This document shows positions 1 through 43,585 of a stretch of 57,953 bases of DNA, piece after piece (the stretch's first letter is position 1; the number at the start of each line of letters is the position of its first letter). Origin of the DNA: Patescibacteria group bacterium (GTDB lineage Bacteria > Patescibacteriota > Microgenomatia > UBA8517). The stretch spans positions 1 to 57,953 of the forward strand of contig JBGPAU010000002.1 of NCBI GenBank assembly GCA_041480845.1, in the 5' to 3' direction. The position numbers and the translations under genes are program-made. A model generated the notes under the pieces. The model was given only the letters and a program-made list of their open reading frames with translations, had not been told where the DNA came from and did not search any database.

Positions 1-679
1 AACCCAGTCTTATAACACCCGACCAATCAATACCTTTAAGATGATTTAATTCAGGGTGGTCAAGATTCTTTTTTTCGACTTTATAAGCCTGTTTCCCAGC
101 AATAACTAATGTAATGTTTGCAATTTTACAGGCCTTAATAAGATTCGGGATGTTTTTATTGTAGTTTACATCCCCTACATACAAAGCAAACTTTTTGGGA
201 ACAGTCATTCCATCAATTTCCATTTTCCAACCTTTAATTTCAATTTTTTTGAAAATGGAACGCGGAGCCAGATAAATAACATGCACAATTTTGGGATCAA
301 CACCCAGGAATCTGCAAATATCTTTTTTGGAAGTTTCGGAAATCGTGATAATCGCATCAACATTTTTCTTAATAAGATATTTGTTTATCTGCCAGTTAAG
401 CCACCCTTTAATCCCGGAAGGATAGTGTTCAGGATAAATAAGAGGAATAAGATCATAAATCGTCAGAACAAACTTTGTACCTTTGGGCTTTGAAAAAGGA
501 AGAGAAATATTAAAGGGCTTAAATGAGGTAAGGTGAACCACGTCATATTGATTAAGATCGGTCTTCGAAATATCAACCCCGGGGGTTTTCAAAGCCTTAA
601 GAAGCTCTCTTGTGTATACCCCGATCCCCCTCAAAGCATGCCCGGAGGTTAAGGGTCCTGAATCAATCGCAACCTTCAT
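1..679 (-). CDS. Glycosyltransferase family 4 (GT-B fold), 5' portion; the 3' end lies beyond the window start
   Basis: Absent from the ORF track because it has no in-window stop. Reverse complement from the ATG at 679 reads MKVAIDSGPLTSGHALRGIGVYTRELLKALK..., a typical GT4 N-terminus. The frame stays open to position 1. Confidence 0.7.
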   Translation of the reverse strand, partial: MKVAIDSGPLTSGHALRGIGVYTRELLKALKTPGVDISKTDLNQYDVVHLTSFKPFNISLPFSKPKGTKFVLTIYDLIPLIYPEHYPSGIKGWLNWQINKYLIKKNVDAIITISETSKKDICRFLGVDPKIVHVIYLAPRSIFKKIEIKGWKMEIDGMTVPKKFALYVGDVNYNKNIPNLIKACKIANITLVIAGKQAYKVEKKNLDHPELNHLKGIDWSGVIRLG

Positions 680-694
680 GAGTATATTTTACGC

Positions 695-1543
695 TTAAAT
701 TTGCTTAGAAGAAATATATTTAAAATAGGCAATTGGAAAGTGCATGGCCGAAAAGAAACTCCAAAGGAAGCCGTTTCCTCCGTCCAAAAGTCCCAGATAA
801 CGGAAGTATAAGTTACAGAAAGTATACAGGGGCTTAAAAACAGCATATAGGAGAAAATAAAAGACATTTTTAGGAACGTGTTTCTCTTTCAACTCTCGTG
901 CTTGCAAATCGGTATAACGATTTAGTCTTGTTAAATAGCGCTTGAGGGTTGGTGAGTCATGGTGCTCAAGATCATTAACGAGCCAGGCAACTTCTCCATC
1001 AAGTTCCATTTGCTCGTGCACGGATTTTTGGGGAAAGTGTGCTTTTCCTTTTTTAACTAAGCGGATTACCCCGTCAGGATAAACTCCGGCATGAATTAAG
1101 GGCCTGCCTAAAAAAATATTTCTTCTCGGAATAAAGTATCCAACTATTTCACCGGTATCTTTGCCAATCTTTCCGTCTCTTGCTTCAATTAAAGCCTGAT
1201 GACGTTGAAATAGTTTGTTGGGTTTGATGATCGATGACGGGTGATTGATGACCGAAACAATTTCGCGGGCTAGTTCAGGAGTCACAACCTCATCTGCATC
1301 AAGTTGGAGTATCCATTCCCCGGCGGCTTTTTCCAAAGCTATTTGTTTTGTGATATGAAAGATGTCGTGATGGGGCTCGGCAAATACCTTAGCTCCATAT
1401 TTTTTGGCAATCTCAACCGTTTTATCCGTGGAATATTCATCCACCACAACAATTTCACCGGCTATATCTTTTACCGATTCAAGACATCTACCAACATTTA
1501 CTTCCTCATTTCTTGTTGCAATTACTATAGATAATTTCTTCAT
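695..1543 (-). CDS. GT2 glycosyltransferase (KdtX/WaaE-like subgroup)
   Basis: 282 aa. Starts LSIVIATRNEE...VVVDEYSTDKT and contains LQLDADEV (DxD-like) and RRNIFLGRPLIHAGVYPDGVIRLVKKG. Paralogous to 23370-24095 and 24097-24993. Confidence 0.85.
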   Translation of the reverse strand: MKKLSIVIATRNEEVNVGRCLESVKDIAGEIVVVDEYSTDKTVEIAKKYGAKVFAEPHHDIFHITKQIALEKAAGEWILQLDADEVVTPELAREIVSVINHPSSIIKPNKLFQRHQALIEARDGKIGKDTGEIVGYFIPRRNIFLGRPLIHAGVYPDGVIRLVKKGKAHFPQKSVHEQMELDGEVAWLVNDLEHHDSPTLKRYLTRLNRYTDLQARELKEKHVPKNVFYFLLYAVFKPLYTFCNLYFRYLGLLDGGNGFLWSFFSAMHFPIAYFKYISSKQI

Positions 1544-3111
1544 TTTAATGGTGTGCCGACTATGTAAAACGCGTTGTTACCGTTGGGGTATTTTATCAGA
1601 TCCTTAACCTTAAACATGTTTATATACTTTAAACCCGTGTAAAAACTCGGTGTCATAATATAAAGTACTTTATCATTAGGGTAGCTTTCTATTATATCCC
1701 AGCCTCCGAATTGATAGTTATCAAACGACAAAACCGTATTATAGCTTTTCGATTCACTTTCATCGTACCGAACACTTGCAAGTAATTCGGGTAAGGGTAC
1801 TTTAAAATAAAAAAGAAAGAATATATAAGGCTGCTGCCTGATTTTATCCATGTAAACCTGAACATAACCCGGATTATCCTTCAGATATTCAACAATTTGC
1901 TTCATTCCATATTGCCATTCTATGGCCTCTTTCTTTGGATACTCCGTAAAGTAATAGTTAAGATAATGGACAGTCTCCCAACTTAAAATTATTATTAAAA
2001 TGCCGGCAACAACAAATCTAATCCAATTTTTCTTGGATAGTAAAATAAGTGTGCCGGCTCCAGATGCCGAGAAAAGTATCACGGGCGGAATCATAAAAAT
2101 TCCCCTTGTCGCACCGGGTTCTACCGTTGAAACTGCTCCCGGAATCGGTGACAGCGCCAGCCAAGAAATAAGTATAAGCAAAGCTTGCCACTTCTTTCGT
2201 AAAACTAACGCAGCAAAACCAACTAGAGAAAGTATTAAGTCGATTTTGTAAAATTCTCCGATAACTTTTACAGAACCTCTTGCGCTTTGGTCTCCGCTTT
2301 GGAATAGGTACAAATATGTAAAATAGCTTTTGTAATTATTTAGCACCATCCCCAATTCACCGCCGTATTTTTTAACTACATCTTCAGAAAATTTGGTTTG
2401 ATTTATCCTGGCAAACCCCAAAATCCGAGGTTCTTTTATTATCAAACCCGCAAACAGTAAAACTACTAAGATCGACCAAATCATAATTTTTTTATTTTCA
2501 ATCAACTTCCTAAAATGAATTAAACAGAGAAGAAAAACTACCGGAGGAACTACGACTTTTGCCGAATGATACGAGAAAAAACTTAAACCCCAAAATACAA
2601 AAGACAGCGGAATCAGCCAATTATTTTTTCTAATCCCTATAAAAAAGACTGCTAAACCGGCTAAAAAGAAAAACAACGCAAAATTTGCCTCCCATAGACC
2701 TCTTGAAAAGTGGATCGCGTACGGAGAAACCGCCAAAAATAGTCCAGATAAAAGACCAGCCAAGTCGCTTTTTAAAAGCTCTTTTGCCAGAAAATAAATC
2801 GCAAAAACCGCGAGTACTCCGACCATTGCACTACCGGAGCGGGTCGAAAAATCCGAAAGTCCAAATATTTTTATGACAGCCGCAGTCAAATAAATATGAA
2901 CAGGGTGTTTATCATCACCGAAAGACTTGAAAACCAGTGGAAATTTGTTTCCATATTCATCTGCTCCCCAATTTGCAATTGTATAGGCGTTATAACCGGC
3001 GGCAATCTCATCCCAATTAAGCGAAGGCGGAATTTTATCCAGTTTGTAAAACCTTAAAATCGCAGCCAATATCAAAATCACAACCAAAACAATGAGTTTT
3101 AATTTTTTCAT
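1540..3111 (-). CDS. GT39/PMT-like polytopic membrane glycosyltransferase (GT-C), paralog A1
   Basis: 523 aa with many hydrophobic segments. Loop-1 motif is NWDEIAAGYNAYTI...EYGNKFPLVFKSFG. Clear paralogy to 3112-4470, 4460-6121, 7653-9065 and 56429-57953. Overlaps the next gene by 4 nt. Confidence 0.8.
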   Translation of the reverse strand: MKKLKLIVLVVILILAAILRFYKLDKIPPSLNWDEIAAGYNAYTIANWGADEYGNKFPLVFKSFGDDKHPVHIYLTAAVIKIFGLSDFSTRSGSAMVGVLAVFAIYFLAKELLKSDLAGLLSGLFLAVSPYAIHFSRGLWEANFALFFFLAGLAVFFIGIRKNNWLIPLSFVFWGLSFFSYHSAKVVVPPVVFLLCLIHFRKLIENKKIMIWSILVVLLFAGLIIKEPRILGFARINQTKFSEDVVKKYGGELGMVLNNYKSYFTYLYLFQSGDQSARGSVKVIGEFYKIDLILSLVGFAALVLRKKWQALLILISWLALSPIPGAVSTVEPGATRGIFMIPPVILFSASGAGTLILLSKKNWIRFVVAGILIIILSWETVHYLNYYFTEYPKKEAIEWQYGMKQIVEYLKDNPGYVQVYMDKIRQQPYIFFLFYFKVPLPELLASVRYDESESKSYNTVLSFDNYQFGGWDIIESYPNDKVLYIMTPSFYTGLKYINMFKVKDLIKYPNGNNAFYIVGTPLK

Positions 3112-4470
3112 CTATTTGAATTGAAATCCGTTAAACGATGCAACCTTTGAAAATCCCCAATCGTTAACGGGGTTAAGCTTTACCTCTTGCCTAAATTTTT
3201 CAGGAGGATATTTAAGGTAGTAAAGAGCAAAAATATACGGCTGGGCATATTTATCGGTAACCTCTCCGCTTTTTTGTTTCGCAAAAATTTCTTTATATTG
3301 GTATTGCCAATCGGTAGCCGTCTCAGCAGAATATTTAGTCATAAAATCAACCATATAATTCTCAAAAGACAGGTAATAAGCCGCAATCACAACTAAAAGG
3401 ATAACCGCGCTAAATTTTTTTACATTTTCTCTCAAAAACCCAATACCCAAGGCAGACAACATAGCAAATGATGGAGCCGCAAGAAGTGCCCTTAACGCAT
3501 GTGGGGATTCTTTTGTCAATGCCGCGGGGATTGGGGCAATCAAGAGTGTCGCCAGAGGCAAAAAGTAAAGAATTTTTTTACTTTTGATAATCACAACCAG
3601 ACCAAGAAGGATTAAAGGTATTTCAAACAAATAAAGCTGTCCGTGTCCGGGAATTTGACTGCGCGGATTGGTGTCCCCTTTTAGGAATAAAAAGTTGGGA
3701 TCAAAATGAGAATAATAGTTTTTTATAAAACCTAATTCACTTGCGACCTCAACTTGTGCAAAACGTACCCCTCCTGCGTCATATTTATAAAGTCTATAAA
3801 CAGGAATTAAACTCAGAATAAAGAAGAGCAAAGATACGACGACCAATATCCAATTTTTCTTTAGACTAGCAAGGTCGTGAAATTTATACAAAAACAGAAG
3901 AACCAACCATATGGGGATAATTATCCGGAAAGAGTTATAGCTGTAAAAAGATAATATGAAACTTAACATTGCCATTAACAATAAATATCTGCTTTTATCC
4001 AAAAGAAGAAATAGATACGTTCCAAGTAAAAAGAAAAATAGTCCTGCAGTGGCCTCATATCCGGTTCTTGAGAATATAAAAAACCATGGCGAGAAACTGA
4101 GAATAAAACTTGCCAGAACTGCCACACTCTTCTTGTCTGTAATCTTCCTGACTAGCAGGTAAACAATAATTAGCGTCCCTAAAGAATATATAACTGCGGG
4201 AAGCCTGACAGCGTATTCATTAAGACCTATTGCCTTAACAAATACTGCCACCGAATAAATATAAACCGGGAGTTTAAACTCTCCGAAGGCGCGGAAATGT
4301 AGAGGTAACTTTACCCCCCATTCATCTTTCAGATCGGTTGCAATCGAATATGCGTTATAACCAATTGAGGCTTCATCCCAATAAGCTGACGCAGGTATTT
4401 CGGCTATTTTATAAATCCGCGAAACTAAAAAAATAATTAATACAAAGGCAAAGATTATTCTATTTCGCAT
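3112..4470 (-). CDS. GT39/PMT-like polytopic membrane glycosyltransferase (GT-C), paralog A2
   Basis: Contains YWDEASIGYNAYSI...DEWGVKLPLHFRAFG, FLFLKGDTNPRS and PIPAALTKESPHALRALL. I prefer the ATG at 4470 (MRNRIIFAFVLIIF..., matching paralog N-termini) over the track start at 4503. Confidence 0.8.
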   Translation of the reverse strand: MRNRIIFAFVLIIFLVSRIYKIAEIPASAYWDEASIGYNAYSIATDLKDEWGVKLPLHFRAFGEFKLPVYIYSVAVFVKAIGLNEYAVRLPAVIYSLGTLIIVYLLVRKITDKKSVAVLASFILSFSPWFFIFSRTGYEATAGLFFFLLGTYLFLLLDKSRYLLLMAMLSFILSFYSYNSFRIIIPIWLVLLFLYKFHDLASLKKNWILVVVSLLFFILSLIPVYRLYKYDAGGVRFAQVEVASELGFIKNYYSHFDPNFLFLKGDTNPRSQIPGHGQLYLFEIPLILLGLVVIIKSKKILYFLPLATLLIAPIPAALTKESPHALRALLAAPSFAMLSALGIGFLRENVKKFSAVILLVVIAAYYLSFENYMVDFMTKYSAETATDWQYQYKEIFAKQKSGEVTDKYAQPYIFALYYLKYPPEKFRQEVKLNPVNDWGFSKVASFNGFQFK

Positions 4471-6121
4471 TTTTTTCGACAATATCAAATGCTCTATTCC
4501 CATTCAGGAAATCAACTGTCAAAAGTCTTGGTAAACCGTCGGGAAAATCTCCGGATTTACCTATAAACAAAATTTTCTTTCCGGGATTCGCGTTAACGAT
4601 ATCTTGATAATGGGTTCCGTTATCCCCCAAGTCCGGAAAATAAAACTTGTCAAACTTTAAAACCCATATCCATTGATTAGCCTCAAAACGGTCAAGACTC
4701 GGATCTTTCTGATAACTTCCAGGGTCCCAGTTCAGGAAAAAAAGAGTAAACATATGCGGTTCCCCATAAGTTCTGCTAAAGACTATTAGGTCATAATCCG
4801 CGTAATGCCCCTTTATATATGAAACTACCTGTTTGTAGCCGTATTGCCAATCGCGAGAATAAAGCTTTGGGTAAATATTGTAGAAATTATTTATATACCC
4901 TTTAAAACTAACTGCCAGAGCTATTACCGAAATACCCGCCACGATCCAACAGAGAATTTTCTTCCGACTTAGCATTTTAAATATTTCGTAAATACCCAGT
5001 GCAGTAAATATCTGATAAGGAATTACCGCCAGGAGGGTTCTTAGAGCATTGGGAATACTATCAACTGTTGCCGATACCGGAATGAAAGCCAGGAAAAGCC
5101 AGGAGATAAGAAGCCATCTCCATTTATTTTTCTTTCTAAAAAGAAAATATAAACCGATTAATATAAACGGCGCCTGAATAGCATAAAGTTCTCCAATCTC
5201 CTGAACATGTTGTTGTTTATGTCCCGCGCCGTTAATAAAAAGGAAATCCGGCGTAAAGTGACTAAGATAATTTCCTGCAAATACATACACAAAATGAGTT
5301 ACCTTGTTATGAATTAAACGGGGCAATGGTTCGGGAAGATTGGTACTACCTCTTGCTTCGTTAATCCTTAAGGTAAAACCGAGATCGTCCGTAATACTTA
5401 CCAGTTTAAGTCTGGCTGTAGCTTCCCCGCTTATTAAGAAAGCGACAAGAGGTATCATCGATAAAGAAAAAACCAAAAGACCCAGTATAACTATCCTAGT
5501 ATTTTTAAATATATCTTTTCTGTAAATCAGCAAAAGTGTAACTAAAAATAGCGGTGTAAAAACCCGGATGGCATTGTATGTATATATCGAAATGATAAAA
5601 GGAATGGTCGAAACTAACCAATATTTTTTGTCGGTGAACCCCTTAACAAAAAACCATATACCAAGAGTCACCCAAAAAACCGAAAATGAGGACTCAAACG
5701 ATGCCCTAGTCAGTTGTATATGCCAGGGGGAAATCGCCAGAAGAAAAGAGGATAGTAGAGCTATCCACTCATTCTTAAATAACTCTTTGGCCAGGAAATA
5801 AAGCAGCAATATTGTTAACGTGCCGTAAATAACTGGTGTGATTCTTACTCCAAACTCATTAAGGCCAAAGATAGCAACTCCCGGAATCGAGGCATATATC
5901 TGCGCAGGAAGTTTATATTCGCCATAAGATTTAAAATGTACAGGCAATAGCTTCCCCCACTCATCCCTGCCGGTTTTAAGAATAGAAAAAGCGTTATAGC
6001 CAATTGAGACCTCATCCCAATTAAGTGAGGGCGGATCCTGGGTAACCTTGTAGAACCTTAAAGTAAAGGCAACACCTACAATCAAAATTACAAGAATAAT
6101 TCTAAAAAGTCGATTTCCCAT
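4460..6121 (-). CDS. GT39/PMT-like polytopic membrane glycosyltransferase (GT-C), paralog A3
   Basis: 553 aa. Contains NWDEVSIGYNAFSI...DEWGKLLPVHFKSYG, is multi-pass, and has a soluble C-terminal domain. Confidence 0.8.
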   Translation of the reverse strand: MGNRLFRIILVILIVGVAFTLRFYKVTQDPPSLNWDEVSIGYNAFSILKTGRDEWGKLLPVHFKSYGEYKLPAQIYASIPGVAIFGLNEFGVRITPVIYGTLTILLLYFLAKELFKNEWIALLSSFLLAISPWHIQLTRASFESSFSVFWVTLGIWFFVKGFTDKKYWLVSTIPFIISIYTYNAIRVFTPLFLVTLLLIYRKDIFKNTRIVILGLLVFSLSMIPLVAFLISGEATARLKLVSITDDLGFTLRINEARGSTNLPEPLPRLIHNKVTHFVYVFAGNYLSHFTPDFLFINGAGHKQQHVQEIGELYAIQAPFILIGLYFLFRKKNKWRWLLISWLFLAFIPVSATVDSIPNALRTLLAVIPYQIFTALGIYEIFKMLSRKKILCWIVAGISVIALAVSFKGYINNFYNIYPKLYSRDWQYGYKQVVSYIKGHYADYDLIVFSRTYGEPHMFTLFFLNWDPGSYQKDPSLDRFEANQWIWVLKFDKFYFPDLGDNGTHYQDIVNANPGKKILFIGKSGDFPDGLPRLLTVDFLNGNRAFDIVEKNAK

Positions 6122-6148
6122 TTCTATATGTAAAAAAAACTCCCCTAC

Positions 6149-7663
6149 CTAAAACGTTCCCGGTGTATAAATCAGGGGTAGTTTCCCCCAATTTTCAAGA
6201 ATAAAAAACATCGATCTGCGATTTAATATAGCCAAAACGACCAACATGGCAACGACTCCTACATACCACACCTTTTTAAATTTATCCGACTTTTGTGTAA
6301 GTGCCCAAAAGGCTCCCATAGCTACAAATAACAAAAACATTACCCTATATAGCATGAATGGCTGGATTTTTTGGAACACACCATAACCCCAATAGAAACT
6401 ACTGGAAACAAAAACGAAAAAGGTTAAAAGAATCGAGACGAAAGTGGGCTTAATGGCAAGATCATAGAGAAAAACTGCTATTGCAATTGCCATAAAGGGA
6501 ATAAGCGGAATGAAATACCAGGGATAATTTGCTCCCACAAGTGCAAGCGCTGAAAAAAGCCCCGCAACAACGGGGACAGTAATCGGCAGATACTCTTTTT
6601 TTCTGGGAATCACAAGTAGTGCAATAAATCCTCCTATCCACCAGCCATCCAATGGGAAATTGTAAATACTGACTCTGAAAAAAGTAACCAGCAAATTAAT
6701 CGAACCTATGAATTCTCTGCTTCCCTGTAGCAGCAGAATATCCGCAAATAACTTTGGCGAAAGATAAAAACCCCAAGCAAAATATAAAATTCCGATGAAA
6801 AAGGCCGGTACTGCGTAAATTAAAATTTGCTTAAACTTAAATTTCCAAAGGTAAAGAAGAATAATGCTGCCCAATATAAATATCCAGCCGGTAAGTTTTG
6901 TTAACGCTGTCAGTCCCCCGACGATACCTGCCAAAAGAACCAATATTCTAAATAATTTGTCTGCTTTCTTACTTACCAACCTGTTCCTAGCCAGAATAAA
7001 AAGAATTATCCCGGAAAGAACCAGCGGTGAGACCACATTTTCCAAAAGTGCGTACCTGCTCAAAAGCACATACGAAGGAACGGTAGCGTAGACGGTTGAA
7101 GCAATAATCCCTACCAGAGGTTTTTTGGTAATTAAAAATGCCAGAACAAATATAAGTATCTGAGTAACTATCGCCAAGGTAATTGCAGACTGTCTTAAAT
7201 CGTAGTTATTAACATCTGCAAAAGTTTTTGCGTTCTTTGATACTCCCAGGCTAAGAATAAAGGCACCAAAGGGCGGGTGTTCAAGAGATGGCTGCACAAG
7301 TTGTGTTTGAGATAAACCTCTCCCAAAATCGAATTCAGCGACTGCAATTGCCGGCTTTGGGAATGAATGAAAGTTTGTAAATGAAGGTTTTGCATCATTG
7401 ACCGCGATATTAAACCCGTCGACTCTTCCGCCAGCCCCAAATGCTTTTGAGTCAGTGGTGTAAGTACTAAGAATCGACCAGGCAGCGGGTATCCCTGTAC
7501 TTCGAAGGCTAAGGCCATTCCAAACATGGGTATGCTCATCCAAGATGATATATGGATCTGGTATTACATTATAGCCGGGAGTACGCAGACTTCTTCCCAA
7601 AATCAAAGTGAGTAAAAGAAGAACAATCCAAAAAACAGTCTTTACTAAAGATTTATTTATCAT
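6149..7663 (-). CDS. Polytopic membrane protein, probable GT-C glycosyltransferase (distinct group)
   Basis: 504 aa. An N-terminal TM is followed by a long first loop carrying ILDEHTHVWNG (acidic DE motif), then about 10 hydrophobic segments. Confidence 0.6.
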   Translation of the reverse strand: MINKSLVKTVFWIVLLLLTLILGRSLRTPGYNVIPDPYIILDEHTHVWNGLSLRSTGIPAAWSILSTYTTDSKAFGAGGRVDGFNIAVNDAKPSFTNFHSFPKPAIAVAEFDFGRGLSQTQLVQPSLEHPPFGAFILSLGVSKNAKTFADVNNYDLRQSAITLAIVTQILIFVLAFLITKKPLVGIIASTVYATVPSYVLLSRYALLENVVSPLVLSGIILFILARNRLVSKKADKLFRILVLLAGIVGGLTALTKLTGWIFILGSIILLYLWKFKFKQILIYAVPAFFIGILYFAWGFYLSPKLFADILLLQGSREFIGSINLLVTFFRVSIYNFPLDGWWIGGFIALLVIPRKKEYLPITVPVVAGLFSALALVGANYPWYFIPLIPFMAIAIAVFLYDLAIKPTFVSILLTFFVFVSSSFYWGYGVFQKIQPFMLYRVMFLLFVAMGAFWALTQKSDKFKKVWYVGVVAMLVVLAILNRRSMFFILENWGKLPLIYTPGTF

Positions 7664-9065: not shown

Positions 9066-9071
9066 ATAACC

Positions 9072-9079
9072 ATTATAAT
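9072..9079. promoter_or_regulatory. Palindromic ATTATAAT giving a TATAAT -10 hexamer on both strands between divergent genes
   Basis: The 25-nt gap is 9066-9090. Minus-strand TATAAT (9077-9072) is 6 nt from the ATG at 9065. Plus-strand TATAAT (9074-9079) is 11 nt from the ATG at 9091. Confidence 0.4.
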
Positions 9080-9090
9080 TCAATTTAGTT

Positions 9091-24095: not shown

Positions 24096-24096
24096 A

Positions 24097-34770: not shown

Positions 34771-34974
34771 ATGAGCGAGGTTCCCCGGCATTGGAGACTT
34801 AACCAACAAAGATACAATCTCGTAGGAGAGAAATGTCCCCATTGTGAAACTTTGATGTTTCCCCCAAGAGATATTTGTATTGACTGTGGGCAGTCGGCGA
34901 AAGAAACAACGGGAGAAATATATTCGAGCCTTAAGATTTCTTTGCCCAGGGAAGTTCCCACGTCTTCCAAATAA
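34771..34974 (+). CDS. Short zinc-ribbon ORF resembling the N-terminus of DUF35 (Zn-ribbon/OB-fold) proteins; possibly a gene remnant
   Basis: 67 aa. Contains RHWRLNQQRYNLVGEKCPHCETLMFPPRDICIDCG (CxxC...CxxC). No OB-fold follows. The 3' end overlaps the convergent 34931-36079 gene. Confidence 0.35.
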   Translation: MSEVPRHWRLNQQRYNLVGEKCPHCETLMFPPRDICIDCGQSAKETTGEIYSSLKISLPREVPTSSK

Positions 34975-36113: not shown

Positions 36114-36122
36114 ACAAGAAGT

Positions 36123-36749: not shown

Positions 36750-38518
36750 TTTTCCTTCTTCCACCTCGAAGCTGGAGCGGTAACTCTACCAAGTTTTTGA
36801 CCGGCCCACAAAATTGCGGTTACAAGAAAATATTGTAACGGTCCGTGATACCATTTTGCGGCTTTTACCAATCTTTCGTTTGATAAACCGAGACCGGCTT
36901 TTTTTGATGCCTGACCGTGATGATGAATAAAATCTGCATCCGGAACATAATAAACCGGAATATTGTTTTCTTTTGCCCTCCGACAATAATCAATGTCTTC
37001 AAAATACATAAATGTTGCCTCCTGTAACATTCCAATTTCATCTTTTACACGATCTGGTATTAGAAAACAGGCCATTACGGCACCTTCTACTTTAGTAATA
37101 TTTTTGTCGGGAGGGGGAAACATAAAATAACTCCCATGACGGCCTAAAAAATATTCCTCAAAGGCATGCCAGGGCGTTGGTAGCATAAAACATGAGTCTT
37201 GGAGTTTGCCATCGTCAAAAAATAATCTGCCACTATATATGGCTCTGTCTCCGTATTTCTTTTCTGCCTCGAGAATATTCGTTATACCATTCGGCATAAC
37301 TTCTATATCAGAATTAAGCATTAGAATATTTTTACCCAACGAAAAATTGATCATTTGATTATTCCCGGCCGCAAAACCATTATTTTCTTTATTTGAAATA
37401 AACTTAACCTGAGGGTAAGCGGATTGCACCTCTTTTCGACACGGATCATCAGGAGAATTATCCAGAACAATAACTTCTGCGCCTTCCCCAATATCACTAA
37501 ACCCCGATTTTCTATCATAGATACTTTTTAACAGTCGAAGAATTAAATCGGTTGTTTTGTAATTAATAATGATGATAGAAAGCTCAAGTGGATATTCTAC
37601 ATTCTCAGGTTGTTTAGCCCCTTTCCATCCCCACATTCCCCGAAAATAATCGATAATTCCCTCCCTTTGCGCCGGTCTTCCTGTAATCAAAAGCCTAAAA
37701 GCTTCCCTAAATAGGGCAAATTTTGTTCTGAAACCGGCATATTTGCTTCCAAACCATAACCTGTTCCTTGTAATGAGATAGTCGCTCCAGGAAGATCCGA
37801 TTCCAGTAGTCCGCGATACTTTATGATAAATATAAGTGCTGCCTACATACCACTGTTCGTATTCTGCACGTTTTATCCGCTCGATCCAATCTGCATCTTC
37901 ATAGTAAGCAAATAATTTCTTTTCAAAATAACCAACTTTCTCAAGTACCTCGCGTTTTACAAGAACACAGCATCCTGTCGTGAAACCCGTTTTCTCTGTT
38001 TTATTAAACTGCCCTTCATCGACTTGGTCTATACCTCTATGGACAGACCTGACATTATCCCAATCAAAACTGCCCCCTGCATACCAGATAACTCTTCCCC
38101 AGTCCTTTTTTGTATATTTCTCTTTATAAAATTCAAATTCAGGAGCGAAATAAATTTTCGGTGAAACGAGTCCGGCTTTTGGATTATCTTCAAACACCTC
38201 AAGCATCTTCTTTAATAAATTCTTGTCCGCTAGAAGTGTATCGTTATTAATAATCAAGATAAAATCCGCACCCCACTCCTTTGCATATTTCATCCCGATA
38301 TTAAATCCACCCGCAAATCCCAAATTCTTACCCGTCTGCTTCCAGACAACATTCGAAAATTTTTCTATAACTCCGCGTACCGAAATATCAGAGCCGTTAT
38401 CAACCACAAGCCATAATACTTCCAAACCGTCTGTATCCAGGTTTTTTGATGATTCAAGATACTCTTCAGTATCCAGGTGATTATTAAAGTCTACCGTGAC
38501 AACTGCTACTTTAGTCAT
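36746..38518 (-). CDS. Double-domain GT2 glycosyltransferase (two tandem GT2 modules, rhamnosyltransferase-like)
   Basis: 590 aa. First module has VAVVTVDFNN...VVDNGSDI and YEDADW. Second module has LSIIIINYKT...VLDNSPDD and FEDIDYCRR. Confidence 0.8.
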   Translation of the reverse strand: MTKVAVVTVDFNNHLDTEEYLESSKNLDTDGLEVLWLVVDNGSDISVRGVIEKFSNVVWKQTGKNLGFAGGFNIGMKYAKEWGADFILIINNDTLLADKNLLKKMLEVFEDNPKAGLVSPKIYFAPEFEFYKEKYTKKDWGRVIWYAGGSFDWDNVRSVHRGIDQVDEGQFNKTEKTGFTTGCCVLVKREVLEKVGYFEKKLFAYYEDADWIERIKRAEYEQWYVGSTYIYHKVSRTTGIGSSWSDYLITRNRLWFGSKYAGFRTKFALFREAFRLLITGRPAQREGIIDYFRGMWGWKGAKQPENVEYPLELSIIIINYKTTDLILRLLKSIYDRKSGFSDIGEGAEVIVLDNSPDDPCRKEVQSAYPQVKFISNKENNGFAAGNNQMINFSLGKNILMLNSDIEVMPNGITNILEAEKKYGDRAIYSGRLFFDDGKLQDSCFMLPTPWHAFEEYFLGRHGSYFMFPPPDKNITKVEGAVMACFLIPDRVKDEIGMLQEATFMYFEDIDYCRRAKENNIPVYYVPDADFIHHHGQASKKAGLGLSNERLVKAAKWYHGPLQYFLVTAILWAGQKLGRVTAPASRWKKEN

Positions 38519-39417
38519 ACAAATTTCAATATATCATGGTAAATGCCGGCGCGGAGTTTATCTCCAATTAGACTAAAAATTAGCCACCTCTCTGCTACCC
38601 CAAACCAAATAACAACTTTCATCATTAAATCGTAATTCGGGTAGTATCTTTTAAGGTAGTACTTTAGACCTTGGATCTCACGAGTCAAGGGTTTTCCTTT
38701 ATCAAAACCTGAGCTAGCTTTGTCCAAGTGGGTAATTTCAAATGAGGGTGTATACCAAATTTCAAATTTCAGGTTATTAATCCTACGGCACCATTCAACC
38801 TCCTCCATATACATAAAAAAATTTTCATCAAAACCTTTGGTTTTCTCTACAACCTCACGCTTCATAAATAAAAATGCCCCCATAACCCAGCCCACCTGAC
38901 GATCTTTCTCAAAAAATTGTTTTTGTCTTGGATGAACCGGTCTTACCGAAAATCTATCCAAACCGAGCATCCAGAGAACTGTATTAAAAGGGTCAGGCAA
39001 AAAACCGGCTGATGGCTGCATTCTGCCATCTCCAAATTTCAATCTGCAACCCAACACGTCACAGCTTTCACTGTCCTTTATAAATTGGGTGGCTCTTGAT
39101 AAAGTTTCAGGAGCGACTAATACGTCTGTGTTAAGAAATAAATAATATTTTGTTCTTTTGTTTGAGGCTTTAATACCTAAATTGTTACCTTTGGCAAATC
39201 CTAAGTTTTCAGCAGGTTCCAAAAGTTTTACCCAAGAATATTTATCTTTAATAACGTTTCCCGTTCCATCCATTCCGTTTTCAATAACAATTGTTTCAAC
39301 AGGTCTTCCTAAGTAATCAATACTTTTTTTCAGTTTGTCTAAACACTCACAAGTCAAACCCTTGGTATTATATGTACAAATAATTACTGTTATTTCAGGA
39401 GTTGCGTCTTTATGCAT
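38515..39417 (-). CDS. GT2 glycosyltransferase (rhamnosyltransferase-like)
   Basis: 300 aa. Contains ITVIICTYNT, VIENGMDGT, GFAKGNNLG and MEEVEWCRR. Confidence 0.8.
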   Translation of the reverse strand: MHKDATPEITVIICTYNTKGLTCECLDKLKKSIDYLGRPVETIVIENGMDGTGNVIKDKYSWVKLLEPAENLGFAKGNNLGIKASNKRTKYYLFLNTDVLVAPETLSRATQFIKDSESCDVLGCRLKFGDGRMQPSAGFLPDPFNTVLWMLGLDRFSVRPVHPRQKQFFEKDRQVGWVMGAFLFMKREVVEKTKGFDENFFMYMEEVEWCRRINNLKFEIWYTPSFEITHLDKASSGFDKGKPLTREIQGLKYYLKRYYPNYDLMMKVVIWFGVAERWLIFSLIGDKLRAGIYHDILKFV

Positions 39418-40312
39418 AATTTATCCCCTTTTCGATTTTCCACAAACGATATTTTTCTAAAATGGAAATTCCCAATTTTACGATAATCATAATGGGCCAC
39501 GGTCCCAGTTCTTTCGAGTGCTTATTGACAAATATCCTCATTGCCATCGCGGCTGATTTTGCCGATTTTATTTTTGTTTCTTTAGCTACAACCACTTTTG
39601 ATGTAGACCATAGACCGGAAGATGACCCTTTATAATGCACCATTATTTCTGACGGTTCATACCAAATCTTATAGCCCGCTTTTTTTATTCTGTAGCAAAG
39701 CTCTATATCTTCACCATTCCACCAGTAGTCTTCATCCCACCAATTAATTTTATCCAATACTTTCCGTTTAATCATTAAGAATGTTCCAGAGATGCAATCA
39801 ATAAAGTGGTCTTCATTTGTATCTAAATATGTGGCCTCATATCCGGCAAGGAGCTTTACTTTAGGAAACAGCTTTGAAAGTCTTGTCCAATAACAGATAG
39901 AATTCCAAATCGTAGGAAGTCCCCTGTGACATGAATAATCAAGTTTTCCGTTAGGAAGCATAACCTTACAGGTTATAGCCCCTAGCTCACCCCGGTTTGT
40001 CAGAATTTCCAAACATTTTTTAATCGCCCTGCCTTTTACCTCAGTGTCTGGATTTAAAAACAAAACCACGTCACCCTTAGTAATTTTTCGAGCCAAATTA
40101 TTGCCCACCGCAAATCCCGTATTTATATCACTTGTAACCAGGTCTACTTCAGGGAAATTTTTCTTGACCATATCGATACTGCCGTCAGACGAAGCATTAT
40201 CAACCACTATTATTTGAAGATTTTTTTCATTATAGGAGTCATAAACAGCCTGAATAGCTTTCTTCAGCAATTTTTCTACATTATGAGATAGAATTACTAC
40301 GGACAAGGTCAT
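39410..40312 (-). CDS. GT2 glycosyltransferase (rhamnosyltransferase-like)
   Basis: 300 aa. Contains LSVVILSHN, VVDNASSDGS, GFAVGNNLA and GEDIELCYR. Confidence 0.8.
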   Translation of the reverse strand: MTLSVVILSHNVEKLLKKAIQAVYDSYNEKNLQIIVVDNASSDGSIDMVKKNFPEVDLVTSDINTGFAVGNNLARKITKGDVVLFLNPDTEVKGRAIKKCLEILTNRGELGAITCKVMLPNGKLDYSCHRGLPTIWNSICYWTRLSKLFPKVKLLAGYEATYLDTNEDHFIDCISGTFLMIKRKVLDKINWWDEDYWWNGEDIELCYRIKKAGYKIWYEPSEIMVHYKGSSSGLWSTSKVVVAKETKIKSAKSAAMAMRIFVNKHSKELGPWPIMIIVKLGISILEKYRLWKIEKGINYA

Positions 40313-40320
40313 ATGAGGCT

Positions 40321-40326
40321 ATTATA
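40321..40326 (-). promoter_or_regulatory. -10 hexamer TATAAT, 8 nt before the ATG at 40312
   Basis: Consensus hexamer overlapping the rfbD stop codon. Confidence 0.3.
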
Positions 40327-41221
40327 CAGCTCTATAGACAAGCTTATCTACTATCTGCTTCCAGGAGCTGAATTTAATTTCTAATTCTTTTTCAGTCCTT
40401 ACCACCTTCAGCCCCCCAAATTTTGGGTATCTAACTGGACTATCTGCATTTTTAAGAAAATCGTCAATACTAATTCCTTTTACCGCTTCTTTCTTACCTC
40501 TTACCCTCTCAATCAAATAAGACACCAGTTCAAATGGGGTTGCTGTATCACTAGAGCTGGCATGAAATATTCCCTTAAGATTTCCGTCAATAATTTTTTC
40601 TAAAGCCTTGGCAACCTCGTCTACAAATGCAATTGAGACTTGCTGATCGATAAACATTGGGTGAAGCTTCCCTTCATCATATAGAGAGAGTGGTTTTCTT
40701 AAATAATCGAGCTTCAAGTCATATTTGACACTCACAGGATAAATTAACCTTAAAATCGTCGCATCTTTCCCAAACCTCTTAATTACTTCCTTTTCTCCAA
40801 GATTTTTTGTGTAGCCGTACCAAGTTAGTTCATCCTCTTTATAAGAACTCGGATGGTTTTCTTCATAAGGTCCTGGGTCTTTCCCAGATCCCGAAAAAAT
40901 CATATCTGTCGAGATCTGAATAAAATGACAATCGGCAGGAAGTGCCTCAATCAAGTTCTCAACTCCGACAACATTTATTCTGTAACAATCAGCGTTTTTA
41001 TCGCCTCTTTGTTTTTCAGCCTCGCCAACATTCGTATACGCGGCAAAGTTTACCACGGCATCAGGATTTACGCGCCTAACAGTTTTGGCCACATCTTCTT
41101 TATGTGTCAGGTCAAATTGGGGATACCCCGGAGTTATAAAATCATACTTATTTTTATAAAGTTCAATAAATTTGGATCCAACCAAACCAGAGGCGCCCGT
41201 AACTAATATTTTCTTCATCAT
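40322..41221 (-). CDS. rfbD: dTDP-4-dehydrorhamnose reductase (RmlD-type SDR)
   Basis: 299 aa. Contains KILVTGASGLVGS, ISTDMIFSG and YGYTK (YxxxK). Sits directly downstream of rfbA and the rfbB-rfbC fusion. Confidence 0.75.
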   Translation of the reverse strand: MMKKILVTGASGLVGSKFIELYKNKYDFITPGYPQFDLTHKEDVAKTVRRVNPDAVVNFAAYTNVGEAEKQRGDKNADCYRINVVGVENLIEALPADCHFIQISTDMIFSGSGKDPGPYEENHPSSYKEDELTWYGYTKNLGEKEVIKRFGKDATILRLIYPVSVKYDLKLDYLRKPLSLYDEGKLHPMFIDQQVSIAFVDEVAKALEKIIDGNLKGIFHASSSDTATPFELVSYLIERVRGKKEAVKGISIDDFLKNADSPVRYPKFGGLKVVRTEKELEIKFSSWKQIVDKLVYRAV

Positions 41222-41230
41222 CTGATTGAA

Positions 41231-41267
41231 AAGCTTCGCTTACCTCACAAGTGGCAAGCTTCGCTTA
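41231..41267 (-). promoter_or_regulatory. Two copies of TAAGCGAAGCTT (41231-41242 and 41256-41267) in the gap upstream of rfbD
   Basis: Plus strand reads AAGCTTCGCTTA twice, 25 nt apart. The distal copy includes the rfbB-rfbC stop codon. The proximal copy ends 9 nt before the ATG at 41221. Confidence 0.5.
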
Positions 41268-42845
41268 TCTTCCCATGAATTTATCAGGAAACACGTCCCT
41301 TAATCTAGGGTTACTTTTGTCTCTAGCCGAAATAACAGGTTTCTTGACCGGCCAATCTATCGCTAAATCAGGATCATTCCAAGCAATAGCGGTTGTGTCC
41401 TTACCATTGTAATACTCATCAACCAAATAAAAATATTCAACATCTTTCTTCCCCGTCACACATATTGAGTTTGCAACACCTTTGGGGATAAACAAGGCTT
41501 TGTGACTCTTTTCATCAAAACTAAATGTTTCCACCTTTCCAAAAGTTGGTGAGTCGGGTCTGATATCTACAAGTGCGGAAAACATTTTGCCGGTCGCCGG
41601 ATAAACCAGCTTATTCCAGTTCTCGGCGTGCAGAGCCCTAATTACCCCCGGCTTTGATTTGGCATGATTCCATTGCTTAACATTGAACTCAAACTTGTTT
41701 ACTTTTTCTAAGGCATTAAGCCTGACATTTTCCCTAAAAAAACCTCTATTGTCTTCGAAAGTGGGCATTTCAATTACTAAAAGCCCGGGAATTGATGTTT
41801 CTTTTATGTATTCTGCAAATTTTTCTGCCTGACGCCCCTCCTCGACTCCGTTATAGAATTTTTCGGAGTCTTCCTTAATCGGCCTCCACCAGGCCTCGTT
41901 TTCCCTAAACCACTTAACAGTTTCGGCGAGTTTGGCCTCAAAATCACGTGAGGGTTCCCAACCAAGCTCCTTTTTGATCTTTGAATAATCAATGGAGTAT
42001 CTCCTGTCGTGACCAGGTCTATCTTTAACAAACTCAATATAGGAATCGTCTCTACCAAATAACTTCAAAAGCATTTTTGCAACAGCCAAATTATCAACTT
42101 TGTCATTGCCACCACCCACAAGATATGTCTCACCACTCTTGCCCCTATGTAAAACCGTATCAACCGCCCGGCAGTGATCACCAACATAAATCCAATCGCG
42201 AATGTATTTTCCGTCGCCGTAAATCGGGATTTTCTTTCCGTCAATTAAATTGGTAATGGCACGGGGAATAAATTTCTCAGTATCATGAAATGGCCCAAAA
42301 TTGTTTGAGGAATTGGTAATTATTGCATCCATTCCGAAAGTCTCGTGATAGGCACGAACCAAGTGGTCCGAGGCTGCTTTACTGGCCGAGTATGGACTTC
42401 TGGGATCGTAAGGGGTATTCTCCGAAAACTTTTCTTTTCCGGTTAAAGGAAGTTCTCCAAAAACCTCATCTGTCGAAATATGATGAAACCTCTCAACCTT
42501 ATTTTTAAGACAAGCGTCCAAGAGATTTCGGGTTCCCAGGACATTTGTTAAGATAAAGTTTTCCGGGTTTTCAATGGATCTGTCCACATGGGTTTCGGCG
42601 GCAAAATTAACAACATGCGTAATTTTATTTTCCTTCATAACCGTGTCAACTCTATCCCGATCGGCAATATCGCCCTTAACAAATTTATAATTTGGGTTTA
42701 ACTCCACATCGCTCAAACTCGATAGATGCCCGGCGTAAGTAAGTTTGTCATAATTAACAACAAAATAATCCGGATATTTATTCAAAATATAGCGAATGAA
42801 GTTAGAACCAATAAATCCTGCGCCCCCGGTTACAAGAAGTCTCAT
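41265..42845 (-). CDS. rfbB: Fusion protein: dTDP-glucose 4,6-dehydratase (RmlB) N-terminal + dTDP-4-dehydrorhamnose 3,5-epimerase-like cupin (RmlC) C-terminal
   Basis: N-terminal part has MRLLVTGGAGFIGSNF, STDEVFG, YSASKAASD and PGHDRRYSID. C-terminal part has IPGLLVIEMPTFEDNRGFFRE...IRALHAE...FIPKGVANS. The ATG at 42845 forms an ATGA overlap with the rfbA stop. Confidence 0.85.
   Translation of the reverse strand: MRLLVTGGAGFIGSNFIRYILNKYPDYFVVNYDKLTYAGHLSSLSDVELNPNYKFVKGDIADRDRVDTVMKENKITHVVNFAAETHVDRSIENPENFILTNVLGTRNLLDACLKNKVERFHHISTDEVFGELPLTGKEKFSENTPYDPRSPYSASKAASDHLVRAYHETFGMDAIITNSSNNFGPFHDTEKFIPRAITNLIDGKKIPIYGDGKYIRDWIYVGDHCRAVDTVLHRGKSGETYLVGGGNDKVDNLAVAKMLLKLFGRDDSYIEFVKDRPGHDRRYSIDYSKIKKELGWEPSRDFEAKLAETVKWFRENEAWWRPIKEDSEKFYNGVEEGRQAEKFAEYIKETSIPGLLVIEMPTFEDNRGFFRENVRLNALEKVNKFEFNVKQWNHAKSKPGVIRALHAENWNKLVYPATGKMFSALVDIRPDSPTFGKVETFSFDEKSHKALFIPKGVANSICVTGKKDVEYFYLVDEYYNGKDTTAIAWNDPDLAIDWPVKKPVISARDKSNPRLRDVFPDKFMGR
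41278..41286 (-). promoter_or_regulatory. Extended -10 box TGATAAATT inside the 3' end of the rfbB-rfbC fusion
   Basis: Minus-strand TGnTAnnnT match, 10 nt upstream of the distal TAAGCGAAGCTT copy. Confidence 0.35.
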
Positions 42846-43585
42846 TCCAGATTCACTCCTTTCCTCATAGCCCAATATAAATTGGTCTTAAGAAGTGAGG
42901 CGGGGGTACCGGCGTCTGACCAAAAACCCTTAAGTTCTACCCAATCAAGCTTGCCCCTTCTCAAATATTCATTGTTTATATCGGTTACCTCAAGCTGTCC
43001 TCTTTCTGAAGGTTTAAGAGTCCTAATTATGTCAAAAACATCGTTATCGTAGATATATAAGCCGGTAACGGCAAAGTCTGACTTCGGCTCTTTGGGTTTT
43101 TCCTCAATCTCGAGAATTTTTCTCTTTAGGTCACTTTTTGGACGGGAAAAGACCGGAACTCCAAATCTCTCAGGATCCGCGACTTTTTTCAAAAATATGA
43201 AGGCTCCATCCTTGAATGACTTGACTGCCTGACTTATATCTGTATCTGTGGTGTTGTCACCCAAAATTACTGTAACTGGGCCTCCGTCTGCAAAATCCTG
43301 CGCGAGTCCCAAAGCATCCGCAATTCCCCCGTCAGTTTTTTCCTGAAATGTGTACTCGATATGTTTTATACCGAAATCTGCCCCGTTCTTTATAACACTC
43401 AAAAAATCCCCTGCGTGGGGGCCCCCGGTAACGATTAATATTTCTGTTATACCGGCATTGACCAAAGTTTGGATAGGATAATAGACCATCGGTTGGTCAA
43501 AAACCGGCAAAAGATGTTTGTTTGTAGCGTGAGTCAGAGGATAAAGTCTGGTCCCCAACCCTCCTGCTAATATGATTCCTTTCAT
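42842..43585 (-). CDS. rfbA: Glucose-1-phosphate thymidylyltransferase-type sugar nucleotidyltransferase (short form)
   Basis: 247 aa. Contains MKGIILAGGLGTRLYPLTHATNKHLLPV and ILGDN. Sits at the head of the rfb block. Confidence 0.8.
   Translation of the reverse strand: MKGIILAGGLGTRLYPLTHATNKHLLPVFDQPMVYYPIQTLVNAGITEILIVTGGPHAGDFLSVIKNGADFGIKHIEYTFQEKTDGGIADALGLAQDFADGGPVTVILGDNTTDTDISQAVKSFKDGAFIFLKKVADPERFGVPVFSRPKSDLKRKILEIEEKPKEPKSDFAVTGLYIYDNDVFDIIRTLKPSERGQLEVTDINNEYLRRGKLDWVELKGFWSDAGTPASLLKTNLYWAMRKGVNLE

Follow-up and report, generated by a model that had tools for sequence, protein, structure and literature searches.

The DNA analyzed here is a contig of 57,953 nucleotides (JBGPAU010000002.1 of assembly GCA_041480845.1; the whole stretch is hereafter called the window) from a member of Candidatus Woesebacteria, a groundwater bacterium with a tiny genome that belongs to the Microgenomatia within the Candidate Phyla Radiation (CPR). 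It carries an array of 17 genes that encode multi-pass membrane proteins assignable to the GT-C superfamily of glycosyltransferases. The nearest named homologues of the window proteins are those of Candidatus Woesebacteria, and a 14.7-kb stretch of the window recurs, identical, in the Joint Genome Institute (JGI) metagenome 3300052989. Fifty-three open reading frames (ORFs) of at least 150 aa are present, almost all of them on the minus strand and tightly packed. The GC content is 0.36-0.42 over 1-43 kb, compared with 0.40-0.45 in the housekeeping flank. Based on hydropathy, 18 ORFs are polytopic: one (25015..26496) is a Wzx flippase, and the other 17, with lengths of 386-615 aa and 7-12 hydrophobic segments each, are the GT-C candidates. 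These 17 ORFs total 8,722 aa, or 26.2 kb (45% of the window). Sixteen lie inside 1540-34730, one runs from 56429 past the window end, and 12 of the 17 genes are packed into a single 17.7-kb run. An earlier note made from the sequence alone had reported 17 polytopic ORFs with these sizes and positions and a share of about 45%, and the ORF list and the hydropathy analysis bear this out. In what follows, GT-C genes are named by their first coordinate, and all features lie on the minus strand unless marked (+).

By Pfam, 12 of the 17 proteins score at or above the gathering threshold of a GT-C family. The family is PMT_2 and/or PMT in 1540, 3112, 4460, 6149, 7653, 14322, 26486, 28860 and 31314, PTPS_related in 15868 and 17523, and GT87 in 11482. 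Two more, 20854 and 33570, fall just under the PMT_2 cut-off, and 9091(+), 12664 and 56429 have no Pfam match. Beyond the 12 Pfam assignments, three proteins are placed by homology to assigned members (including the second copy of the pair that we call family C) and one by an AlphaFold model, which leaves 33570 with moderate support. For instance, 20854 is only 1.7 bits under the PMT_2 cut-off and shows clear homology (E 9e-26; hhalign 100%) to 28860 and 31314. The reading frame of 56429 is open to the last base, and its alignment to the paralogues begins at their residue 58-66; it lacks about 60 N-terminal residues because the gene runs off the window end. Thus, all 17 ORFs can be assigned to the GT-C superfamily from sequence and predicted fold. 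We regard this assignment as confirmed, with 33570 only moderately supported. The Pfam matches of 12 of the 17, the homology among paralogues, and an AlphaFold2 model of family C compared by Foldseek all point to GT-C enzymes rather than transporters, as the earlier note had proposed.

An all-against-all BLASTP comparison reproduced the sequence groups of the earlier note. Group A comprises the PMT_2/PMT-like genes 1540..3111 (PMT_2 59 bits, PMT 30 bits; 10 hydrophobic segments), 3112..4503 (PMT_2 37 bits; 32% identity to 1540 and 4460), 4460..6121 (PMT_2 47 bits, PMT 42 bits), 7653..9143 (PMT_2 29.7 bits; orthologues in 40 of 80 related loci) and the incomplete 56429..57953 (BLASTP matches to 3112, 4460 and 1540 with E 3e-25 to 1e-15; hhalign 100% to group A). 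Group B comprises 14322..15896 (PMT_2 34.5 bits, PTPS_related sub-threshold), 15868..17526 (PTPS_related 75.9 bits) and 17523..19244 (PTPS_related 36 bits, with a weak YfhO match). Family C is the pair 12664..14325 and 9091..10938(+). Group D comprises 20854..22449 (PMT_2 24.4 bits), 28860..30473 (PMT_2 40 bits) and 31314..32828 (PMT_2 52 bits). The remaining four are single: the PMT-like 6149..7663, which has a long first loop (PMT 40.5 bits; hhalign 93% to 4460 and 26486), the PMT/PMT_2-like 26486..28033 (PMT_2 39 bits, PMT 35 bits), the GT87-like 11482..12657 and the probable GT-C protein 33570..34730(+). By sequence, 11482 is a match to the GT87 family (PimE/polyprenol-phosphate-mannose mannosyltransferases), for which it passes the gathering score (38.3 bits; cut-off 25).

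At a deeper level, group A (five copies), group D (three copies), 26486 and 6149 form a PMT_2-like supergroup with mutual hhalign probabilities that are mostly at least 94%. The three PTPS_related/YfhO-like copies of group B join this supergroup at 65-97%, the two copies of family C are tied weakly to the other groups (at most 83%), and the GT87-like 11482 and the Gpi18-like 33570 stand isolated. Pairwise identity among paralogues is 20-38%, and the sole repeats at the DNA level are remnants of 55-166 nt with 60-75% identity around the conserved motifs. The array is therefore not the product of a recent amplification, which we ruled out given the diverged paralogues and the lack of long DNA repeats. 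The earlier note had argued for a maintained repertoire from the deep divergence of the paralogues, and this view is strengthened by orthologues of individual paralogues, whose order is retained in Daviesbacteria and Shapirobacteria. Because the orthologues keep their order in Daviesbacteria, the duplications predate the split of these orders.

GT-C enzymes of this kind were expected to carry an acidic residue in the first outer loop, and a D or E shortly after the first transmembrane segment is present in 16 of the 16 proteins with a complete N-terminus and is conserved across their orthologues. The motif is WDE or GDE in group A, with D34-E35 in 1540 (WDE), D43-E44 in 3112, D36-E37 in 4460 (25 of 25 orthologues) and D58-E59 in 7653 (24 of 24). 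It is ADE in 26486 (D41-E42; 26 of 26) and LDE in 6149 (D42-E43, conserved). The DE motif coincides with an above-cut-off match to the PMT N-terminal domain PF02366 in 1540, 4460, 6149 and 26486. Group D has DQxRD or GD(E/Q)GRD: D54 and D58 are conserved in 20854 (DQxRD), as are D80 and D84 in 28860, and the GD[EQ]GRD motif of 31314 is kept in all N-complete orthologues. Group B has DD or HHD, with D37-D38 of 14322 and D35 of 15868 each found in 24 of 24 orthologues and D42-D43 of 17523 conserved. The GT87-like 11482 has a conserved DD (D56-D57), D44 is invariant in family C (12664), D99 of 9091(+) is kept in 25 of 25 orthologues, and D51 is invariant in 33570.

None of the scores of the GT-C proteins or of the soluble GT2 proteins attains an equivalog cut-off in the NCBIfam scans. 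For the ArnT equivalog, the only match among the 10 GT-C ORFs scanned (26486, 28860 and 31314 were not among them) is that of 6149, at 22 bits versus a cut-off of 567, and NCBIfam has no family for 9091, 12664, 20854, 11482, 7653 or 14322.

The two copies of family C share 32.5% identity over 566 aa (E 4e-83; hhalign 100%). Neither has a Pfam or NCBIfam match, and no STT3 match was found at E <= 1. We aligned 31 homologues, modelled 12664 with AlphaFold2 and compared the model with the Protein Data Bank (PDB) using Foldseek. The model is of good quality (mean predicted local distance difference test score, pLDDT, 89; predicted template modelling score 0.88), and its best 32 PDB matches are all GT-C proteins, with E-values down to 1e-8 and TM-scores of about 0.5. 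They include the C-mannosyltransferase DPY19, AglB/STT3/PglB, AftA, AftD, ArnT, Pmt and Emb, such that 12664 is predicted to have an oligosaccharyltransferase (OST)/DPY19-like fold. Transporter folds appear in the list at a probability of at most 0.2 only. The C-terminal domain resembles the globular domain of AglB (3vu0, probability 0.99). A sequence-profile search of the family C and 33570 alignments against PDB sequences returned nothing meaningful, and only the fold comparison was informative. The WWDYG-type motif (WWD[YFW]G) occurs in 0 of the 31 family C members. Given the missing motif and the missing STT3 profile match, we ruled out that family C is an STT3-type OST.

A search of 1.84 billion representative proteins gave 1,838 representative clusters for family C (about 1,800 at 50% identity). 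Its alignment was also scanned against one genome per species of the Genome Taxonomy Database, which yielded 482 loci; the counts given for loci refer to the best 80. In 65 of these 80 loci a Wzx gene lies directly upstream of the family C gene on the same strand, and the identity of Wzx was checked by Pfam in one Shapirobacteria and one Daviesbacteria locus. Wzx is found no more than 10 kb from family C in 66 of the 80 loci; over the same distance, a GT2 gene like 24097 is present in 57, a GT2 gene like 23370 in 49 and a GT4 gene like 22373 in 47. Many family C proteins reach about 1,000-1,160 aa; an N-terminal soluble domain accounts for the extra length in the two that were examined. For instance, the Daviesbacteria proteins (P0241 and P0242; L020 8189-11668 and L025 8216-11641) have about 1,150 aa, and in P0241 a secreted N-terminal domain of roughly 470 aa, a part in which no Pfam domain was found in the long fusions, is joined to family C. 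One predicted protein of 1,639 aa combines Wzx, a soluble domain and family C. Family C is an unclassified GT-C family that adjoins Wzx in most of the related loci, a link that is new here. The two genes have become separated in the lineage of the window.

The weakest GT-C case, 33570(+), has a sub-threshold PMT_2 match (22.4 bits) and matches the AZOBR_p60025 family, described as 'cell surface glycopolymer formation' (E 5e-12); its JGI label is 'Gpi18-like mannosyltransferase', and it is probably a GT-C protein of the Gpi18/PIG-V type. Its AlphaFold2 model has a pLDDT of 66.5, and the best 24 PDB matches are all GT-C proteins at E-values of 0.02-1 (STT3, PIG-U, ALG12, PimE and Pmt). It has 3,105 homologues, of which the best 120 clusters are 70-100% identical, some of them labelled Saccharimonadales or Patescibacteria. 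It is the most conserved GT-C protein of the set, and in the relatives examined at this position (L088-L090) it is always near a dolichol-phosphate-mannose-synthase (DPMS)-type gene. This far stronger conservation and the constant nearness to the synthase suggest, by sequence comparison, that many CPR lineages share a core function served by 33570.

Three GT2 proteins resemble synthases of polyprenyl-phosphate sugars. The first, 34931..36079, combines a GT2 domain with a GtrA-like transmembrane domain (GtrA_DPMS_TM) and matches the Pyrococcus furiosus dolichyl-phosphate-mannose (Dol-P-Man) synthase 5mlz over its full length (E 7.5e-36), which marks it as a putative DPMS-type polyprenyl-phosphate hexose synthase. 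The two others are soluble, lack a transmembrane helix, match in the catalytic domain only and stay under the equivalog cut-offs; both match the NCBIfam models for Dol-P-hexose transferase, ArnC, PgfS and PpgS. For 28117..28863 these matches have E-values of 1e-19 to 1e-9. For 32810..33520, which is ArnC/GtrB-like, the best matches are ArnC structures (9bhc and 8vxh, E 1e-17), GtrB (5ekp, E 1e-15) and the NCBIfam ArnC model (E 4e-21). Each synthase gene has a GT-C neighbour. Two of them run into group D genes, with overlaps of 19 nt (32810 and 31314) and 4 nt (28117 and 28860), and 34931 is convergent with 33570(+).

The rest of the block contains further glycosyltransferase genes, the flippase and the sugar-nucleotide genes. 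Seven GT2 genes stand beside the three synthase-like ones: 695..1543 (soluble; Glycos_transf_2, E 1e-19), 19253..20179 (E 9e-24), 23370..24095 (E 1e-6), 24097..24993 (E 5e-19), 36746..38518, 38515..39417 and 39410..40312. Of the last three, the first has two Pfam GT2 stretches and resembles rhamnosyltransferases and GlfT1 (TIGR01556, E 1e-30), the second is a Glycos_transf_2 protein with a weak rhamnosyltransferase match, and the third has a Glycos_transf_2 match. Two genes are of the GT4 family: 22373..23389 (Glycos_transf_1, E 1e-24) and a GT-B fold gene that runs off the window start, leaving the N-terminal part only (1..673; weak GT4-type NCBIfam match glgA_Coryne, E 4e-8). The Wzx flippase (25015..26496) belongs to the MOP superfamily, with matches to Polysacc_synt_3 (E 5e-51) and to a MOP flippase model (E 2e-34), and would move a lipid-linked oligosaccharide. 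An S-adenosylmethionine-dependent methyltransferase (20142..20864; Methyltransf_11, E 4e-23) may methylate sugar hydroxyls. The dTDP-L-rhamnose pathway is complete (E 4e-35 to 7e-69 for RmlA, RmlC and RmlD), with RmlD, the dTDP-4-dehydrorhamnose reductase, at 40322..41221 (RmlD_sub_bind E 5e-38; TIGR01214 E 4e-35), a fusion of RmlB (dTDP-glucose 4,6-dehydratase) and RmlC (3,5-epimerase) at 41265..42875 (TIGR01181 472 bits, above the cut-off; the rmlC domain spans residues 357-527) and RmlA, the glucose-1-phosphate thymidylyltransferase, at 42842..43585 (NTP_transferase E 5e-54; rmlA E 7e-69). GalU (UTP-glucose-1-phosphate uridylyltransferase, 44206..45093; TIGR01099 E 5e-95) and GalE (UDP-glucose 4-epimerase, 46278..47270; TIGR01179 385 bits, above the cut-off) follow. 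The Pfam and NCBIfam results agree with the soluble gene list of the earlier note (10 GT2 genes, two GT4 genes, Wzx, the methyltransferase, the rml genes, galU and galE). Its description of the genes as interleaved on one strand holds for most of them; the exceptions are the GT-C genes 9091-10938 and 33570-34730 and the gene trmD, all on the plus strand. As for the short overlaps it described, some are long (-140 and -77 nt), which is an effect of choosing the first possible start codon.

In order to assess how widely the array is conserved, ORFs were called within the 21.6-kb loci of relatives and compared with the 17 window proteins. The best 80 loci come from Woesebacteria, Daviesbacteria, Shapirobacteria and metagenome-assembled genomes (MAGs) named 'Microgenomates/Patescibacteria group', and most of the full-length 21.6-kb loci hold 7-12 GT-C-like genes. 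In Daviesbacteria, the orthologues of 17523, 15868, 14322, 12664, 9091 and 7653 are in the same order; 9091 is on the opposite strand in relatives too. In the complete 983-kb chromosome OY970314.1, the region 561.6-603.2 kb (two overlapping loci) is syntenic with about 1-45 kb of the window; this locus of at least 41.6 kb represents about 4% of the chromosome. The same backbone is present in the complete genome CP066686.1 (1.08 Mb), along with three extra GT-C genes, which encode a YfhO-like protein of 774 aa, a GT87-like protein of 450 aa and a PTPS-like protein of 584 aa. Gene comparison thus indicates a conserved scaffold that acquires and loses GT-C modules. The survey shows that the array is class-wide and conserved in order, not peculiar to this genome.

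The term island, used in the earlier note, is apt for a chromosomal locus found across the lineage and not for a mobile or horizontally acquired element. We ruled out a mobile or tRNA-flanked island, as there is no tRNA, the GC content is only slightly below that of the flank and synteny is class-wide; no mobile-element genes were seen in the window. Switching by phase variation was also ruled out: a search returned a single trivial tandem repeat, and neither a convincing inverted-repeat switch nor an Rfam match.

Several further observations concern the related arrays. Some contain GT-C families that the window lacks (L085 17159-18469, L006 21100-21974 and L004 3122-5446), and the extra families include ALG6/ALG8-like proteins, the MptA_B_family and YfhO proteins of 774-797 aa. 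Such arrays, with up to 75% identity to the window protein, also occur in dozens of third-party (TPA) MAG records titled 'uncultured Gammaproteobacteria bacterium' (L010, L014, L016, L017, L019 and many more); on Microgenomatia-type arrays these titles look like placeholders or wrong taxonomy. The rmlB-rmlC fusion, one ORF of 536 aa in the window, corresponds to two genes, one of 335 aa and one of 186 aa, in OY970314.1 (L088 17613-19177), and in L090 the dehydratase gene has 638 aa and rmlC is separate.

A few genes within the block have other apparent roles. An ORF for a 197-aa protein with one N-terminal transmembrane helix (10892..11485) has no Pfam or NCBIfam match and lies in the same place in about 25 related loci; placed beside the GT87-like gene, it may encode an accessory subunit. 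An NrnA-like DHH/DHHA1 phosphoesterase gene (30334..31317; NrnA E 6e-30) is embedded between two group D GT-C genes and has the same position in L088, L089 and L090. It is found in only 1 of the 80 family C-centred loci, which do not reach its position. As a cytoplasmic nanoRNase/phosphoadenosine phosphate (pAp) phosphatase, it has no obvious part in glycan assembly. The genes trmD (36123-36749, plus strand) and an RNaseH-like PF04308 gene (43669-44169) are also embedded in the glycan locus and are in the same places in L088-L090. Between galU and galE lies a gene for a protein that is anchored in the membrane and has a CAP (cysteine-rich secretory protein) domain (45364-46278), and galE is followed by genes for a VanZ-like protein and for a protein of 276 aa that has two hydrophobic segments and belongs to no family (47271-48495). 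The genes at 48590-52978 encode an M23/PcsB-like peptidase, FtsX, FtsE and prfB (PCRF and RF-1 domains); they are housekeeping genes and unrelated to the array. A DedA/VTT-domain membrane protein is encoded beside the 17th GT-C gene (55326..55883; VTT_dom E 3e-18).

The gene content, the families and folds, the conserved residues of catalytic type, the synteny and the conservation across the lineage are observations. Based on them, we consider it likely that the window carries one chromosomal locus for building a complex envelope glycan outside the membrane. Family membership and gene context suggest that many distinct glycosyl transfers would take place there; this was also the reading of the earlier note, and sequence, predicted structures and genome comparison support it as far as they reach. 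From these features we infer the donors, the order of the steps, the acceptor and the role of family C. RmlA, RmlB-C and RmlD would supply dTDP-L-rhamnose, and GalU and GalE would supply UDP-glucose and UDP-galactose. The cytoplasmic GT2 and GT4 enzymes and the methyltransferase would assemble an oligosaccharide linked to polyprenyl (di)phosphate as its carrier, and three GT2 proteins (28117 and 32810, of the ArnC/GtrB type, and 34931, of the Dol-P-Man-synthase type) would charge polyprenyl phosphate with single sugars. Wzx would then flip the lipid-linked oligosaccharide, which family C would pass on. Finally, the 17 GT-C enzymes, which represent no fewer than five deeply diverged families, would transfer, extend and branch the glycan with lipid-linked sugars, each probably making one linkage. 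The ArnC/GtrB/DPMS-like GT2 genes adjacent to GT-C genes support a putative use of lipid-phosphate-linked donors on the outer face of the membrane. Such heavy GT-C use would demand recycling of the carrier, and the DedA/VTT protein beside the 17th GT-C gene could recycle the polyprenyl phosphate released outside. DedA/UptA proteins are reported to be undecaprenyl-phosphate recyclers.

Family C probably consumes the glycan flipped by Wzx, as a polymerase, a ligase or an OST-like (en-bloc) transferase. This proposal, based on sequence and a predicted model, would place it at the missing Wzy/WaaL step because of its Wzx neighbour in the relatives and its OST-like fold. With regard to the acceptor, wall-linked polysaccharides, lipoglycans and surface proteins are all candidates, and we favour a polysaccharide or lipoglycan.

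Several points weigh against this pathway as drawn. Among the window ORFs of at least 150 aa scanned with Pfam, there is no initiating phosphoglycosyltransferase (WecA/MraY or WbaP/PglC type) and no Wzy, WaaL, Wzz or LCP catalytic domain, so that both ends of the pathway are missing or unrecognized; the initiating enzyme, Wzy and Wzz may be encoded elsewhere or be replaced by unrecognized proteins. Three candidate synthases of monosaccharide donors are few for 17 GT-C enzymes. Wzx (25015) and family C (12664) lie 10.7 kb apart here, so that their link derives from the relatives, and the fusion of the two is a single predicted protein that could be a gene-calling artefact. Because PMT and PMT_2 are broad families, the acceptor (polysaccharide versus protein) is not readable from the sequence. 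The proposed mechanism is drawn from genes, predicted folds and synteny.

The best-surviving alternative is that the locus mainly serves protein glycosylation, with the PMT-like paralogues O-glycosylating different surface proteins (S-layer proteins, pilins or adhesins) and family C acting as an en-bloc oligosaccharyltransferase. We think this unlikely. For most copies the best Pfam family is PMT or PMT_2 and, as in the GT39 family (eukaryotic PMT and actinobacterial Pmt), group A, 26486 and 6149 combine the PMT/PMT_2 N-terminal domain with the loop-1 DE of protein O-mannosyltransferases. However, the PMT_4TMC and MIR domains of true PMTs are absent from all copies (among Pfam matches at E <= 0.01), the scores are modest (22-59 bits), several divergent copies stand in place of one, and PMT_2 also takes in ArnT-like enzymes, whose acceptors are lipids or polysaccharides. 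Where protein O-mannosylation is known in bacteria, it requires a single Pmt. The structures nearest to family C are those of protein-modifying enzymes (DPY19, STT3, AglB and PglB), including the AglB-like C-terminal domain, but the family has neither the WWDYG motif (lacking in 31 of 31) nor an STT3 Pfam match. Similarly, the GT2 matches include PgfS and AglJ from protein-glycosylation pathways, whereas the GT87, PTPS_related/YfhO and Gpi18-like members suggest glycolipid or polymer acceptors.

A second alternative, which we hold to be improbable, is that the genes are interchangeable decoration modules like serotype-converting gtr cassettes, of which a subset is active and which diversify fast in response to phages or for host attachment. 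Such modules would fit the gene content that varies on a shared backbone (as with the three extra GT-C genes of CP066686.1, set in the same order), the group A copy number and best-match patterns that vary among loci, and the two-gene cassettes of GT2 and GT-C that recall GtrB/GtrC. Nevertheless, one-to-one orthologues of most paralogues keep their order even in lineages as distant as Daviesbacteria, the genes are packed in an operon-like, tight and co-directional manner with no mobile-element genes seen, and the window offers no invertible elements, long repeats or simple-sequence tracts for switching. Finally, the idea that the polytopic proteins are transporters or other membrane proteins and the array an annotation illusion is close to refuted: three ORFs have no Pfam match, two are sub-threshold and the 33570 model is of low confidence, but 12 of the 17 reach the gathering score of GT-C families, the ORFs without Pfam match are tied to GT-C proteins by homology or structure, transporter folds reach at most 0.2, and the loop-1 acids are conserved.

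The complex envelope glycan that we favour has counterparts in characterized systems. The earlier note held that such systems carry one or two GT-C genes per locus, which is too strong. To our knowledge, the densest characterized GT-C locus is Rv3779-Rv3809c with about six, which we take to be Rv3779, aftA, embC, embA, embB and aftB, over roughly 35 kb. This locus is the mycobacterial arabinogalactan cluster, and in mycobacteria cytoplasmic GT-A/B steps are followed by GT-C steps outside that use polyprenyl-phosphate sugars (PMC3229680). The same inside-then-outside logic would apply to the window as to the arabinogalactan and the lipomannan/lipoarabinomannan of mycobacteria and corynebacteria (PimE, MptA/B/C, EmbA/B/C and AftA-D, with donors from Ppm1, PpgS and the decaprenylphosphoryl-arabinose (DPA) pathway), and the two share a GT87 member, the clustering of GT-C genes with supply genes, and weak PpgS-like and Dol-P-hexose-like GT2 matches. 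In contrast to the Mycobacterium tuberculosis cluster, the window packs 17 GT-C genes into 58 kb and has Wzx instead of an ABC transporter. It lacks DPA pathway genes (UbiA, DprE1/2) and Emb/Aft family matches, and it comes from a genome of about 1 Mb in an unrelated phylum with different enzyme families.

The pairs 32810/31314, 28117/28860 and 34931/33570, in which a GT2 synthase adjoins a GT-C gene, resemble the two-gene decoration systems ArnC/ArnT, GtrA/GtrB/GtrC, CsbB/YfhO, GacI/GacL and PgfS/PgfM, and the dTDP-rhamnose genes with the rhamnosyltransferase-like GT2s recall streptococcal rhamnose polysaccharide loci. Two-gene systems carry one GT-C enzyme for one decoration, whereas the window chains at least five GT-C families, and unlike in the Gtr systems its GtrA-like domain occurs only as a fusion in 34931. 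As in the Wzx/Wzy pathway, Wzx is present, and family C follows it directly in 65 of 80 loci, as wzy often does; its fold is closest to STT3, AglB and PglB. Unlike in the Wzx/Wzy and OST systems (Wzy, WaaL, PglL, PglB/AglB/STT3), the window has no Wzy, Wzy_C or STT3 Pfam match, no WWDYG motif, no Wzz and no initiating enzyme.

Within the open-access literature on CPR lineages (subscription literature was outside the scope), we found neither a functional nor a descriptive account of such an array, in line with the earlier note; the CPR genome papers there that mention mannosyltransferases list only multiple copies of 'dolichol-phosphate mannosyltransferase'. The component enzymes are of known kinds. 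What differs is the scale, the conservation across the class and the unclassified GT-C family linked to Wzx. More tentatively, and with more doubt than confidence, we propose that Microgenomatia make a complex heteroglycan on the outside of the membrane in the mycobacterial style with the largest contiguous GT-C assembly line known, in which family C replaces Wzy/WaaL/PglB on the glycan flipped by Wzx.

If this is true, it would add a new branch of Wzx-dependent pathways and a defining envelope structure of a major CPR class. The CPR, or Patescibacteria, represent a large share of bacterial diversity; their genomes measure about 1 Mb, and their own biosynthetic capacity is close to nil. Their cell-surface chemistry is essentially undescribed, yet the surface is where they make contact with hosts and phages. 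The locus offers gene targets for metatranscriptomics, glycan chemistry and heterologous enzymology, and a large, diverse and compact GT-C collection on which structures and mechanisms can be studied, including the unclassified family tied to Wzx. The class-conserved locus covers at least 41.6 kb and encodes 14-17 GT-C enzymes, which points to a heavy investment in an elaborate surface glycan by these bacteria.

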